Below are positions 10,197 through 14,990 of a DNA stretch of 32,306 bases, in pieces. Location of the stretch: the IMG/VR virus record IMGVR_UViG_2802429237_000004, positions 1-32,306 of that record. The stretch is one strand, 5' to 3'. Under the pieces are notes generated by a model. That model was not told the DNA's origin and did no database searches. It worked only from the letters and a program-made list of their open reading frames with translations. The position numbers were made by a program, and so were the translations under genes. Every line of letters starts with the position of its first letter. The stretch's first letter is position 1. The stretch is from a virus. Its lineage: Duplodnaviria > Heunggongvirae > Uroviricota > Caudoviricetes.

Positions 10197-11097
10197 CCGT
10201 TCCCCCGTTGGTCACGCTCCACTGAGTACATGATGCCGCCTGCGTTTTGTTCAGGACCACATCCGCCAGCGGCGAAGCCAGCTCCACACGCTGCACACCC
10301 TCAACATGCAGGGCGGCAAAAATGGCGCTACGGCGAATATCCCGACCAAGCCGCGTCTGACTGGCGATGTACTTCTGCAGGCTGGCTTTTGCCGCTGCCA
10401 TTACCGGCTCGGCTTCCGGCCCCGGATAGAGAAAAATGGTGGCATCCACCCGGTACGGGATGATTTCTGCGCTGCGAACCGTCAGACGGTCAGCCACCGG
10501 GCGGACGTTCTCACTGTTCAGAGATTTTTCCACCACGTCCAGCAGGTCTTTTTCTGCAGTTCCATCGCCTTCACGGCTAAGGACAGTCAGCACCACCTCT
10601 GCAGGTGCCGGGCTGGTTGCACTGGCATCCGCCACCCGACCGTCGGCGCTTCGGGCATGAAATTCATAAGCTGCAGTTGGCCCCGCGACTGAAAGCCCTT
10701 CAAAGGCTGCAGGCACACGCAGGCGTAACGCTTCATCGCTTTCCATCACAGCCGCAACGGGCGGCACAGCGTCATTATCAGCAGGCGTCACCGTCAGGCG
10801 TTTCACGTTGTAGTTGGCAGCGAGCTGGTCCAGATCGCCGCCCATCGCGTAAGCCACCATCACCGCCTGCGCGGCTTCGTTAATGCGCTGTCGCAGAAGC
10901 AACTCACGGTAAGCGTTCTCCTGCAACAATTTGGTGACGGGTTCAGATTCCAGTTCCAGCGTGCGCATCACTGCTTCCTGTTCATCTTTCGGATGAAGCG
11001 CCACAAATTCTGCCTTGCGTTCGGCAAGCAGCGTCTCAAAGTCCGGCACATCCACAATCTGCGGCGCAGGCAACTGCGAAAGGTCAATCACTGCCAT
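10189..11097 (-). CDS. J: Baseplate assembly protein J
   Basis: Start moved to the internal MAVIDLSQLPAP (the ORF-track start at 11136 gives a non-homologous leader); about 302 aa, matching P2 gpJ. Confidence 0.85.
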   Translation of the reverse strand: MAVIDLSQLPAPQIVDVPDFETLLAERKAEFVALHPKDEQEAVMRTLELESEPVTKLLQENAYRELLLRQRINEAAQAVMVAYAMGGDLDQLAANYNVKRLTVTPADNDAVPPVAAVMESDEALRLRVPAAFEGLSVAGPTAAYEFHARSADGRVADASATSPAPAEVVLTVLSREGDGTAEKDLLDVVEKSLNSENVRPVADRLTVRSAEIIPYRVDATIFLYPGPEAEPVMAAAKASLQKYIASQTRLGRDIRRSAIFAALHVEGVQRVELASPLADVVLNKTQAASCTQWSVTNGGTDE

Positions 11098-11443
11098 TCT
11101 CTGCTCCTGTTGATACAGAAAGGGAAACAGGCACACCGTTATTACGCCGCCCGGTCAGCTCCACCACCATTGAACCGTCAAAATTGCTGTTGATGGTGAT
11201 GGAATCCAGCGTAAGCCGTGGCTCCCAGCGACTCAGTGCCACATACACTGCCGACATGACCTGCAGGCGTAACGCCGGATTTTGTGGCTGATCTATTAAA
11301 GCCGACAGCAGGGAACCATATTCCCGGCGGGCAATGCGGCTACCCTGCGGTGTCAGCAGAATGTCCCGCACCGACTGGCGCAGATGGTCAATATCAGTAA
11401 TGGCTTTACCGCTGGTATTGTTCATCCCGCTATAAAGCGTCAT
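11084..11443 (-). CDS. W: Baseplate wedge protein W (gp25-like)
   Basis: 119-aa ORF between V and J, 4-nt overlap with V; P2 gpW size and position. Confidence 0.85.
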   Translation of the reverse strand: MTLYSGMNNTSGKAITDIDHLRQSVRDILLTPQGSRIARREYGSLLSALIDQPQNPALRLQVMSAVYVALSRWEPRLTLDSITINSNFDGSMVVELTGRRNNGVPVSLSVSTGAENGSD

Positions 11444-12018
11444 ACCGGGCCTCCGGTTGTATCGCCGCCTTTCAGGACGCCAGTATGCTGATGCGCATCA
11501 ACCACGATCCCGTTAGAACTCATCGCACCGCCGCCCTGGGTAACGCCGCCATTGATCACTACTTCGCTATTAATACGCGTGCGCTCAGCCTCCAGCACAA
11601 ACTCACTGGTTTTCAGGGTGATATTGTCGGCAGCCTCAATGACCATGGATTTGATTCCCCTGACATACCAGCGCCCGGTAGCGGGTTCGTATTCAAACCG
11701 GCCGCCGTCAGGATGTTCTGTCACGCAGGCATCCGCCGACGTCGACGGCGGTGCAAACTGATTCGAATAGATGGCGGGCAGCGCAAAGGCGGTTTCCAGA
11801 TTTCCGCCCAGACTCAGCAGCACCACCTGCTCACCTTCCGATGGTCGCCACCATGTGCGGGCATTCCCGGCACGCAGCGTCAGCCAGCTGATCCAGTTAG
11901 TTTCAAGCTCGCCCGTTTTCACCCGGCAAAGCCAGTTCTCCCGGTCCACTTCGGTGACTACCCCAGTGCGGATCAGGTTGGTGATAAGACGCATGATTTC
12001 GGTTAATTGTACGTTCAT
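11440..12018 (-). CDS. V: Baseplate spike/assembly protein V
   Basis: 192-aa ORF; its N-terminus resembles P2 gpV as I recall it (IRTG..TE...R.KTGE...W..WLT.RAG..RTWW.PS.GEQV); first gene of the V-W-J-I-H-G block. Confidence 0.85.
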   Translation of the reverse strand: MNVQLTEIMRLITNLIRTGVVTEVDRENWLCRVKTGELETNWISWLTLRAGNARTWWRPSEGEQVVLLSLGGNLETAFALPAIYSNQFAPPSTSADACVTEHPDGGRFEYEPATGRWYVRGIKSMVIEAADNITLKTSEFVLEAERTRINSEVVINGGVTQGGGAMSSNGIVVDAHQHTGVLKGGDTTGGPV

Positions 12019-12064
12019 AAGAAAAAACTAACCGCCATTGCAAACGTAATCGAGTAGATAGGAA

Positions 12065-12082
12065 TGTTTGATTCATGGCACA
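12065..12082. promoter_or_regulatory. TGT-N12-ACA dyad in the V upstream region (possible late promoter element, atypical spacing)
   Basis: tgtttgattcatggcaca read in the 92-nt gap between V and the divergent cargo gene; its centre is only about 55 nt from the V start codon, closer than at FI and O. Confidence 0.3.
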
Positions 12083-12110
12083 ATACGTTGCTTACTTTTA
12101 AGGATATAAA

Positions 12111-12872
12111 ATGAAAGATAATTTAAATCTTCTTATAAAAAAATTAATAGGAAAGGCCTTTCCTGAATTTAGCAATAAGATAACATGGACTTTACTCACT
12201 GCAGGGATCGGTATTCTTGCACTACCTGCACCCACATATTTATTATTCGTAAACCTTATAATTGATTTTTACAACAAAACAACTAATTCAGAAATCAGCC
12301 TTCTTAAGATTGATAGCATTACACCAAGTAGTGGGGTTGCTTTAACTTTAATTCTATCCGGACTAGTCTTCCACCTATTAATAAAAGCCCCCCAGATATA
12401 CCAAGAAATTCTAAAAAAGAATAACAAAAAAGAAACACAGGAAAGAAAAAGAGTAGCAGACGTTAAACTTTATGAGGCATTTATTGAGATTCTACCTACA
12501 ACCTCGTTATCAATTGAGTTCTTAAAAGACCATGATTTTGAAAACTCCTATCATGATAATAATACAAAAGATTTTAGTAAACTTGAATACGGGTGGGGTC
12601 ATGCAGATCAACATTTTCATGACAATGAAATTGAAGATAAAGCCGTTCATCTTTATAGTGAAATAATAAAGTTCGATTATTTTCTCGCTTATAAATCGCA
12701 CAATATCAATGACTATATGTTTAGCATGCTTACTGACAGAGATCGAGCTATGGTGATGGAATTATTACCTCAAACAAAGGAAAATATAAAAATAGCCAAT
12801 GAGTGGAGTTCTACAATTCATCAGCTTTACTGTGACTTTATCTCCACATGTAGGAATAACTTAGCCATATAA
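12111..12872 (+). CDS. AT-rich cargo gene: predicted 2-TM membrane protein with unknown C-terminal domain
   Basis: 253-aa ORF with AAGGA Shine-Dalgarno 6 nt before the ATG; two hydrophobic helices (ITWTLLTAGIGILALPAPTYLLFVNLII and SGVALTLILSGLVFHLLI) then a roughly 160-aa soluble domain; visibly AT-rich against GC-rich flanking tail genes; located between S and V, where P2 carries orf30. Confidence 0.6.
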   Translation: MKDNLNLLIKKLIGKAFPEFSNKITWTLLTAGIGILALPAPTYLLFVNLIIDFYNKTTNSEISLLKIDSITPSSGVALTLILSGLVFHLLIKAPQIYQEILKKNNKKETQERKRVADVKLYEAFIEILPTTSLSIEFLKDHDFENSYHDNNTKDFSKLEYGWGHADQHFHDNEIEDKAVHLYSEIIKFDYFLAYKSHNINDYMFSMLTDRDRAMVMELLPQTKENIKIANEWSSTIHQLYCDFISTCRNNLAI

Positions 12873-12890
12873 ATTATATGCTGTAGTTAA

Positions 12891-13334
12891 TTAAGACAAG
12901 TAACGAAAAAAAATATCACGAGTTAGCATTTCCGCTTCGTCGTTAACACCCAGAAAGCGACGCTCTGCATAACGGACCTCAGGTCCTTTGCGACTGACGC
13001 GATCACGCAGGCCGTAATGGTGAACGCGGGCAATGCGCTGCACCTTACCTTCAAACTGCACGCTGGCAGAATCGGCGCTGGCGGCAGTTTTCAGGTATTT
13101 GGTGGTGCGCAGCTTTGTAAACATCTGACGTTTGATGCGCCCCTTTTTGCTGCGTGCTGTTACCCTGCGCGGTTCATAGCTGCTGCCGTCAGGGTTGCGC
13201 TGCATCCTGATATTCTGCTGCTGTGTCCGGCGCAGTTCCTGCGCCAGCTGGCGCATCATGCGGCTTCTTGCGGCTGGCTCCAGATTCGCCAGCAAGGCAC
13301 TCAGCCAGTCGTCCACCTTCTGCAGTTCAGCCAC
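12891..13334 (-). CDS. S: Tail completion protein S
   Basis: 147-aa ORF downstream of R with 8-nt overlap; P2 gpS size and position. Confidence 0.8.
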   Translation of the reverse strand: MAELQKVDDWLSALLANLEPAARSRMMRQLAQELRRTQQQNIRMQRNPDGSSYEPRRVTARSKKGRIKRQMFTKLRTTKYLKTAASADSASVQFEGKVQRIARVHHYGLRDRVSRKGPEVRYAERRFLGVNDEAEMLTRDIFFRYLS

Positions 13335-13779
13335 GTTTCACCGTCCACATTTCTTCAGGTTCATCGGGTTCCGCTACAGCTTCAACGCTGGACACAGTGC
13401 CGTCAGTGCTGACCAGCACACGTTCCGTCAGTTGCAGGTTAAGGCTGATATCACAGACATCGTTGCGCAGAATATCCACCTCAAAGGTGAATAGTTTTTC
13501 CCGTAACGCCGGGTTATTGATGGCATCGGGCTGGTTATCACGCAGCCACAGCAAAACCGGGGCCATCAGCAGATTCTGGTCGCCACTGAAATCCTCAATC
13601 ACCACGTTCAGGGTGTAACGGTACTCCCATGACATGGAGCTGGCCCCCGTAGCAACCAGCGAACCGTTATCCACAAACAGATGCAGTTTGTCCGGGTTAT
13701 TGCGGACATAAGGCACCGCTTTATTGAGGGCGTGGCGCAGGGATTGTGGTTTGTTCACTGTTTCGCTCCTGACACGCAA
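13327..13779 (-). CDS. R: Tail completion protein R
   Basis: 150-aa ORF; contains ..SLRHAL.......NPD.L..FVDNGS...... and RYTLNVVIEDFSGD resembling P2 gpR as I recall it; exact start uncertain because it overlaps lysC. Confidence 0.75.
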   Translation of the reverse strand: MRVRSETVNKPQSLRHALNKAVPYVRNNPDKLHLFVDNGSLVATGASSMSWEYRYTLNVVIEDFSGDQNLLMAPVLLWLRDNQPDAINNPALREKLFTFEVDILRNDVCDISLNLQLTERVLVSTDGTVSSVEAVAEPDEPEEMWTVKRG

Positions 13780-14011
13780 TAATCATGTCCACTTTGTCTG
13801 CACAGACCGCCCAGGCGGCCTCCGTTTCATCCAGCAATGCATTCAGATCAGCGTTAGTGCGCGGCGTTGCCTGCTCCAGCCGACACGGCGTCACTCGCGG
13901 ACAACCACTGACGGTAAGCTGCACCTCCGGTGAGTGCCGGACGTTCCCGCAGCCGGATAATGTCAGCAGGCAAAGGAGTATCAGCCCAGCGGCGTAAATC
14001 CTCGTTCTCAC
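13721..14011 (-). CDS. lysC: Outer-membrane spanin lipoprotein (LysC/Rz1-like)
   Basis: 96-aa ORF with a signal peptide and lipobox (LLCLLTLSGC) and Pro-rich mature region, lying in a different frame partly inside the lysB 3' end, as for P2 lysB/lysC. Confidence 0.65.
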   Translation of the reverse strand: MRTRIYAAGLILLCLLTLSGCGNVRHSPEVQLTVSGCPRVTPCRLEQATPRTNADLNALLDETEAAWAVCADKVDMIIACQERNSEQTTIPAPRPQ

Positions 14012-14282
14012 GTTTCAGTTCCTCGATCCGGCGTTGTCGTTGTCTCAGCAGTGCGCTGGTCTGTTCTGCGTCGGCATAGAGCCGCGCCTGCTCCCGGTTG
14101 TTGGTTTCAGCCAGAATGGACAGACTGATCAACTGGCTATTTTTCTTCGTTAGTTCCTGCGCTTTACTTTCTAGCGCCGCGCGCTGCGTTTCGATGGTGT
14201 GGCTGGCGCTGTTAAGCCGCCACGACTGCCAGCCCAGCGCAACGAGTACCAGCGCCACCACTACTGCCAGCGCACGCGTCAT
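13854..14282 (-). CDS. lysB: Inner-membrane spanin (LysB/Rz-like)
   Basis: 142-aa ORF with an N-terminal TM helix (ALAVVVALVLVALGW) and a coiled-coil periplasmic domain, directly after the endolysin gene. Confidence 0.7.
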   Translation of the reverse strand: MTRALAVVVALVLVALGWQSWRLNSASHTIETQRAALESKAQELTKKNSQLISLSILAETNNREQARLYADAEQTSALLRQRQRRIEELKRENEDLRRWADTPLPADIIRLRERPALTGGAAYRQWLSASDAVSAGAGNAAH

Positions 14283-14794
14283 AGTCCAGCTCCTTTAAGG
14301 CACCAGGCCATCTCCCGCGCACGGCGGTTATCCAGCCCCTGATTAAAAACACCTTTCACATAAACCCAGCGCGGCAACTGTCGGCACGCATCCGCCCAGC
14401 GCCGCTGGTTGAGTAATTTCACCAGCGTGGAACTGCAGGCATTGCCCGTTCCCACGTTGAAGGCAAACGACACCACCGCGTCATACACCTTCTGCGGCGG
14501 CTGTTGCTTCACACACCTTTCCAGCGCCCGCTCCACACGCAGCACGTTGGAGATCAGCCCTTCCGCTGCCTGTCGTTCCGTAATGGTTTTGCCGGGAATG
14601 ACGCCCGACGTATTACCAATGCCGTCGGTCCAGACACCCGCGCTGCACTGATACGGCTGCAGACGACAGCCTTCGTAATCGGCAATCAGTTTCAGCCCCT
14701 CCACGGAGGTGTGAAGCTGCTGAAAACCCGGCAACGTAGCTGCAATAGCCAGCACGGCCCCGACAAGGCAGCGTTTAACGATTGATGGATTCAT
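14279..14794 (-). CDS. K: Endolysin, T4-lysozyme-like with a likely N-terminal signal-anchor (SAR)
   Basis: 171-aa ORF; hydrophobic N-terminus (CLVGAVLAIAATL) then a lysozyme-type segment (EGLKLIADYEGCRLQPYQCSAGVWTDGIGNT); follows the holin gene. Confidence 0.85.
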   Translation of the reverse strand: MNPSIVKRCLVGAVLAIAATLPGFQQLHTSVEGLKLIADYEGCRLQPYQCSAGVWTDGIGNTSGVIPGKTITERQAAEGLISNVLRVERALERCVKQQPPQKVYDAVVSFAFNVGTGNACSSTLVKLLNQRRWADACRQLPRWVYVKGVFNQGLDNRRAREMAWCLKGAGL

Positions 14795-14990
14795 AGTCCT
14801 CCCGCGAGATCTGCCCGTCGCGCAGAAGCTGGTAGGCTTTATGTTTGTAGTACCAGTTGATAGCCAGCATCAGCACACCAATCATCAGGCCGCCCAGCGT
14901 TGAGGCATCCTTGATGGACAAATCGCCCAGCCAGGCCAGCACGACGGCGATGCAATACGTGATAAAGGCGCTGATTCGCTCAAGCGTCAT
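14775..14990 (-). CDS. Y: Holin
   Basis: 71-aa ORF with two predicted TM helices and a charged C-terminus, directly upstream of the endolysin gene. Confidence 0.7.
   Translation of the reverse strand: MTLERISAFITYCIAVVLAWLGDLSIKDASTLGGLMIGVLMLAINWYYKHKAYQLLRDGQISREDYESINR

Follow-up and report, generated by a model that had tools for sequence, protein, structure and literature searches.

In CBASS Cap12 (TIR), Cap5 (HNH-SAVED), and Cap13/14 (TM-SAVED), as well as in Pycsar PycTIR and PycTM, one C-terminal regulatory domain is combined with interchangeable N-terminal TIR, HNH, and two-helix membrane (2-TM) modules. The SLATT-type 2-TM effector domains, reportedly described by Burroughs and co-workers in 2015, are said to carry an attached soluble conflict-system domain and to be predicted to perturb membranes. 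Csx28, the accessory membrane pore of Cas13b (PDB 8gi1), is also listed among the systems closest to the protein considered here. T4 Imm, P22 SieA/SieB, HK97 gp15, lambda RexB, and P2 old/tin/fun(Z) represent prophage-borne accessory genes of variable loci that act against other phages and are richer in AT than the phage itself. The P2 family carries exclusion genes in such loci, with Z/fun entered as "phage exclusion" (PMC3091744), and the orf30 locus is a site for horizontally acquired genes, the P2 defense hotspots being located inside tail genes (PMC3091744; PMC13586616).

Here, we describe a gene, referred to as the cargo gene, that occupies this slot in a viral DNA of 32,306 nucleotides (IMG/VR record IMGVR_UViG_2802429237_000004; the window), within a near-complete P2-like prophage. 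The closest positional counterpart is P2 Orf30 (NP_046770), whose relatives NCBI annotates as DUF6216 family proteins. Both genes occupy the slot between S and V on the opposite strand, are AT-rich (GC 0.34 in Orf30) and non-essential, encode proteins of similar length (261 aa for Orf30, 253 aa for the cargo protein) with membrane helices, and have their start codon just past the activator site of the late promoter P_V. Orf30 differs, however, in its predicted topology, with three hydrophobic segments distributed over its length. Homology between the two was rejected on the basis of an hhalign probability of 0.1 and of a tblastn search against 50,697 phage records, including P2, which gave nothing at E ≤0.01.

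The cargo gene and its insertion site

The open reading frame comprises 253 codons, starts with ATG, and lies on the + strand, opposite to gpV and gpS, both of which are on the − strand (Table 1). An earlier note on this DNA had described a 253-residue frame running against the surrounding late genes, with its own ribosome-binding site and a striking AT-richness, and all of these features were borne out. At the local base composition, 253 stop-free codons would occur by chance with a probability of ~1e-9. The Shine–Dalgarno sequence, 6 nt ahead of the start codon, is kept as AAGGA or AGGGA at homologous loci. GC is 0.31–0.34 over positions 12000–12900 vs. 0.54–0.60 in the flanks, or ~0.32 for the gene and insert vs. 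0.57 flanking. The dN/dS ratio is 0.37 relative to the copy in E. coli A37, and between genera pS is saturated at ~0.8, with pN at ~0.3. The cargo ORF is a real gene, foreign to its surroundings and under purifying selection. An exact-sequence look-up identified its product as WP_105289431.1, annotated there as "hypothetical protein" and as hypothetical in all sources, and a literature search on this accession returned no mention.

Table 1. Features of the cargo gene and its surroundings, with positions in the window.
Feature	Position	Strand	Basis
gpV, baseplate spike/assembly protein V	11440..12018	-	ORF; RefSeq annotation of 95%-identical copy; divergent neighbor
Candidate weak sigma-70 promoter of the cargo gene	12055..12084	+	TAGATA, 18-nt spacer, TGg-CACAAT; overlaps the activator dyad
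TGT-N12-ACA dyad, Ogr/Delta-type activator site of late promoter P_V	12065..12082	.	Sequence
AT-rich insert, GC about 0.32	12085..12890	.	Composition; megablast; alignment with phage 500465-1
Shine–Dalgarno AAGGA	12100..12104	+	6 nt 5' of ATG; sequence
Cargo gene, 253 aa plus stop	12111..12872	+	ORF listing; exact-sequence look-up; purifying selection; 29 homologous clusters
N-terminal cytoplasmic motif FPEFSNK(I/V)TW, residues 17–26	12159..12188	+	Invariant in the close family
Membrane segment 1, residues ~25–56	12183..12278	+	Hydropathy; AF2 helices 23–37 and 40–58; conservation
Membrane segment 2, residues ~73–95	12327..12395	+	Hydropathy; AF2 single helix 74–127; conservation
Basic stalk/linker, residues 96–116, KKNNKKETQERKR	12396..12458	+	Charge count
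Acidic all-helical, four-helix-bundle-like C-domain, residues 117–253	12459..12869	+	Family-defining module
gpS, tail completion/virion morphogenesis protein	12891..13334	-	ORF; annotation; Pfam Phage_tail_S; convergent neighbor

Close relatives, among them Escherichia phage 500465-1 and numerous Klebsiella phages, have a gap of only 68 nt between V and S. In a megablast search against phages, the query was covered at its V and S parts only, spanning 1094 nt in the matches and 1895 nt here, and phages with 93–94% nucleotide identity in the flanking V and S lack the insert. The P2 record, in turn, has Orf30 at the equivalent place and in the equivalent orientation, and the earlier assignment of the gene as a moron in the P2 orf30 slot was upheld by these comparisons. 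The stop codons of gpS and the cargo gene are 18 nt apart.

This position is shared by the homologs. The cargo gene lies between gpV, in which Pfam Phage_base_V was found at homologous loci, and gpS in 12 of 12 IMG/VR viral contigs and in all intact prophage loci fetched; in two degraded remnants, it adjoins gpV, and only a fragment of gpS is left. Identity of the cargo across loci ranges from 46 to 96% and is decoupled from that of gpV, as in the L039–L041 comparison, with 47% identity in the cargo and 96% in gpV. A comparative survey of E. coli genomes sampled at even spacing found the slot empty in 31 of 49 cases, and the occupied slots in the remainder hold other single AT-rich genes, encoding DUF6216, FRG, a TIR_2 protein, and two unknown families. 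The FRG cargo corresponds to the PADLOC candidate PDC-S15 (E 1e-31). Bit scores of at most 7.7 led to the rejection of homology between the present gene and the other slot cargo (FRG, TIR, the GF54/A16 family, and the PU-1 family). The cargo gene is a horizontally acquired moron that is selectively maintained in the orf30 slot of P2-like phages.

Promoter region

The center of the Ogr/Delta-type dyad lies 55.5 nt from the V ATG, and this distance is equal in all cargo-bearing and empty loci examined, except for P2 itself, in which the exact TGT-N12-ACA pattern is unmatched, though an activator site is annotated at the equivalent place (10239–10266, with the V transcription start annotated at the V ATG). 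The candidate promoter of the cargo gene overlaps this dyad. Its (T)AGATA block is kept in the same register at cargo-bearing loci with divergent alleles and is missing from the empty-slot phage; since it agrees with the consensus at 8 of 12 positions and falls under the threshold of the consensus scan, it is regarded here as a putative promoter. Scanning for terminators and strong promoters around the cargo gene gave none above shuffled expectation, no terminator-like site was found between the cargo gene and gpS, and Rfam returned no RNA family over positions 11800–13100.

The cargo gene may be transcribed in the lysogen from this weak promoter, which would overlap the Ogr/Delta site of the divergent P_V. 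Owing to the overlap, the late program of the prophage could switch the cargo gene off; Ogr would occlude the cargo promoter, and the prophage's own lytic cycle would be spared.

It is very improbable that the protein serves the phage's own lytic cycle as an accessory factor, for instance by helping assembly or as a membrane protein that times lysis or resembles an antiholin. Such a role would be in line with a membrane protein encoded between tail genes, the lysis cassette (holin, endolysin, and LysB/LysC; 13721–14990) being ~1 kb away; however, the gene is on the strand opposite to all late operons and cannot use the P_V activator site, because the dyad at −55 would put the transcription start inside the ORF. 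In addition, most of the closely related viable phages do not carry the gene, and distant homologs exist outside prophages, including seven marine loci retrieved by a narrow-alignment scan of genome contigs, all without gpV and gpS. A holin, antiholin, or spanin was also rejected, given the opposite strand, the location outside the cassette, and the lack of a family match.

Membrane module and stalk

Hydropathy delineates two membrane segments at roughly residues 27–53 and 73–93. The charge distribution, +3 in the N-tail, −1 in the loop, and +5 after the second segment, speaks for an N-in/C-in topology that places the C-terminal ~158 aa in the cytoplasm, and together with hydropathy and the AF2 model it agrees with the two TM helices and the cytoplasmic domain of ~160 aa proposed earlier. 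The product is a predicted protein of the inner membrane whose two termini face the cytoplasm, and a continuous stalk helix joins its two-helix module to an acidic four-helix-bundle domain.

Within the N-terminal motif, P18 is 100% conserved, and F17, F20, N22, K23, T25, and W26 are each conserved in at least 80% of 51 distant full-length representatives. The first membrane segment has a Pro39/Pro41 kink and conserved residues G32, N48, and N55. The second, which runs on into the long stalk helix, displays conserved L80, L85, and H/N88, and its position 77 is Gly in 89% of the distant members and Ala in the window protein. N48, N55, and H/N88 represent conserved polar residues inside the membrane. 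The stalk is the most variable segment, with a mean pairwise identity of 36%, compared with 72% for the membrane module, 53% for the C-domain, and 41% for helix 172–195. To judge from these alignments, the contrast in conservation fits a putative fixed effector combined with a diversifying recognition surface. The membrane module could also be a mere anchor.

Family membership and the C-terminal domain

The window protein has no match in Pfam, NCBIfam, or PADLOC at E up to 10, and its matches in PHROGs are at chance level (E ≥0.09). No component model of PADLOC-DB v2.0.0, including Rst_2TM_1TM_TIR, PD-T4, PD-T7, and PD-lambda, matches the protein or its C-domain. Foldseek searches against the PDB and BFVD gave nothing at E ≤1e-3, and a PDB sequence search with both profiles returned chance-level matches only; the C-domain has the fold of a generic helical bundle, and none of its structural neighbors is informative.

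The protein has numerous relatives. The close family consists of about 29 enterobacterial clusters of 45–94% identity, all beside gpV, and an exhaustive profile search extended it to a wider family of 913 representatives at E ≤1e-3, 181 of them at E ≤1e-10, where representatives are taken at the 50% identity level. We propose a new family whose members would combine an N-terminal 2TM, 1TM, TIR, HNH, or SLFN module with a C-terminal acidic helical bundle, delimited by a significant profile match over the ~140-residue C-domain with D117, W162, F169, and N230 conserved; the window protein has this match and these residues.

Family-wide conservation in the C-domain involves D117, L120, P129, H141/D142, W162, F169, E175, N230, and L251. 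The His/Asp clusters to which the earlier note had drawn attention (HDFENSYHDNN and WGHADQHFHDNE) are present, but they do not form the conserved core: H148, H168, and H170 are conserved in the enterobacterial subfamily only, and metal binding via the His clusters was therefore rejected as the common mechanism of the family. The earlier reading is sustained for the gene, its anatomy, and the lack of a matching curated family, and not for its orphan status or its His/Asp core. The domain is acidic, with a median pI of 5.6 and a net charge of −12 in the window copy, which makes nucleic-acid binding unlikely. A HEPN assignment was discarded, as there is no conserved Arg 4–6 residues before a conserved His (R-x4-6-H) and no Pfam HEPN match; position 240, which is His in 51% of members and Tyr in 43%, has no Arg upstream of it.

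Fusions and genomic contexts of the relatives

A profile made from the close family alone finds the C-domain at the C-terminus of TIR proteins (P0163, E 9e-12; P0114, E 9e-14), of an AlbA_2/Schlafen protein (P0086, E 4e-16), and of an HNH protein (P0149, E 4e-12), the E-values applying to a library of 1.84 billion proteins. More than 100 clusters of the HNH-plus-C-domain arrangement were confirmed with this profile. The C-domain follows two kinds of TIR domain, and in three fusions the TIR is of the CAP12/Pycsar family PF10137. When the fusion relatives were compared with PADLOC, matches were confined to their TIR or SLFN parts. Most other representatives contain one or two TM helices unrelated to the N-terminus of the window protein. 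The contigs of the TIR fusions are only 2–3 kb long, and metagenome scans gave TIR-only relatives.

A few, anecdotal examples place relatives in defense contexts: one lies between hsdS and hsdR in a type I R-M operon, another adjoins a C5 methylase and a GHKL ATPase, a third adjoins a weak ThsB_TIR match and an 8xMP membrane protein, and a fourth belongs to an island in Marinomonas that also includes weak matches to AbiGi and HEPN and two PADLOC candidates, PDC-S26 and PDC-S71 (E 7e-228). In contrast, the HNH-fusion loci (three of three examined, from cyanobacteria and a metagenome-assembled genome) are found among housekeeping genes, outside defense islands, so the C-domain is not defense-specific by context.

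That the gene is not antiviral at all, and instead serves lysogenic conversion or selfish maintenance in a permissive slot, as a modulator of membrane stress or physiology, an addiction-type toxin module, or a factor in bacterial competition, appears fairly unlikely. The HNH-plus-C-domain relatives, as solitary genes in housekeeping neighborhoods, would accord with it, as would carriage in only 12 of 5426 E. coli genomes, the lack of any defense model that recognizes the cargo protein, and the interruption of two ETEC copies by IS1, which marks the gene as dispensable. However, a physiological modulator would not readily account for the recurrent combination of the C-domain with TIR, HNH, Schlafen-like, and TM modules, for the occurrence of relatives inside an R-M operon and defense islands, or for cargo alleles that turn over faster than the flanking structural genes. 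In addition, the insert has no room for an antitoxin partner. The role in defense, exclusion, or abortive infection, which the earlier note had considered plausible, is better motivated by the TIR, HNH, and Schlafen-like fusions and by the FRG/PDC-S15 and TIR cargo of the same slot.

Superinfection exclusion at the envelope, in which DNA entry or receptor function is blocked without killing, in the manner of T4 Imm, P22 SieA, and HK97 gp15, and the cytoplasmic domain only stabilizes or positions the protein, is unlikely. It would suit a small prophage-encoded inner-membrane protein whose gene, being on the strand opposite to the late genes, could be expressed in lysogens, and the variable loci of the P2 family are known for exclusion genes. 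However, the periplasmic loop has only ~16 residues and is poorly conserved (52%), and no exclusion family of PHROGs or Pfam matches. The most distinctive and widespread part of the protein is cytoplasmic; its presence on soluble TIR, HNH, and SLFN proteins and in R-M operons points to an intracellular event.

The partner modules (2TM, PF10137 TIR, and HNH) mirror the effector repertoire of cyclic-nucleotide systems, with the effector N-terminal and the putative sensor C-terminal, and the protein could on these grounds be a receptor-effector for a small-molecule alarm, its C-domain binding a nucleotide or another second messenger from a host or phage enzyme encoded elsewhere in the genome, in parallel to the orphan effectors of CBASS, Pycsar, or type III CRISPR that join a TM, TIR, or HNH module to a sensor. 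We consider this quite unlikely, as no cyclase or other signal-generating gene was found in any locus examined and the neighbors vary by locus, the C-domain is acidic and conserves Asp, Glu, His, Asn, and aromatic residues, whereas phosphate binding usually relies on basic ones, and the C-domain has no similarity to SAVED, cNMP-binding, STING, CARF, or SLOG domains.

Proposed mechanism

The explanation that we favor, with a likelihood a little short of even, is that of a single protein for abortive infection or exclusion, whose membrane effector is gated by the C-domain. The cargo gene would encode an anti-phage factor that unites sensor and toxic effector in one protein, with the C-domain as the regulatory or sensing module that keeps the N-terminal effector inactive. 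Upon infection by another phage, the C-domain may recognize a trigger, either a phage protein or an infection-induced change, and the stalk helix would relay the signal. The membrane module would then oligomerize or open, the membrane potential would collapse, and the infection would be aborted or its early steps blocked.

A wider version of this proposal is possible but doubtful. In it, the C-domain is an undescribed, widespread infection-sensing or regulatory domain that gates toxic effectors of at least four unrelated classes (2-TM, TIR NADase, HNH nuclease, and Schlafen-like modules) and defines a new single-protein abortive-infection family, whose cargo member has resided in orf30 long enough to diverge to 46% identity and has its promoter occluded by Ogr.

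If the proposal is true, the bacterial immune repertoire would gain a sensor domain and a single-gene system, both of them new, and the orf30 slot, the third and least-studied variable locus of P2-like phages, would join old/tin and Z/fun as a source of defense genes. The 253-aa protein would also provide a compact model of a cytoplasmic sensing domain that opens a two-helix membrane effector. Since TIR and HNH enzymes would be under the control of the same domain, identifying the trigger of one member would probably explain many hundreds of unannotated proteins in Proteobacteria, Cyanobacteria, and Chloroflexi. If the gene is not antiviral, the recurrent fusions still mark an uncharacterized regulatory domain worth defining.

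Comparison with known systems

The two-helix membrane module with conserved polar residues is similar to that of the SLATT domains; however, the SLATT_1-6/DUF4231 models in Pfam give no match at E up to 10, and the N-terminal FPEFSNK-TW motif is specific to the cargo family. The prophage exclusion proteins from T4 Imm to P2 old/tin/fun(Z) have no homology to the cargo protein, which differs from them in that its large conserved part is cytoplasmic and common to soluble enzymes. In contrast to CBASS and Pycsar, the cargo gene is solitary, with no CD-NTase or pyrimidine cyclase and no conserved neighbor among the at least 20 loci examined, and its C-domain is an acidic helical bundle rather than a SAVED, STING, cNMP-binding, or related nucleotide-binding fold. 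The resemblance to these two systems is therefore one of logic, not ancestry.

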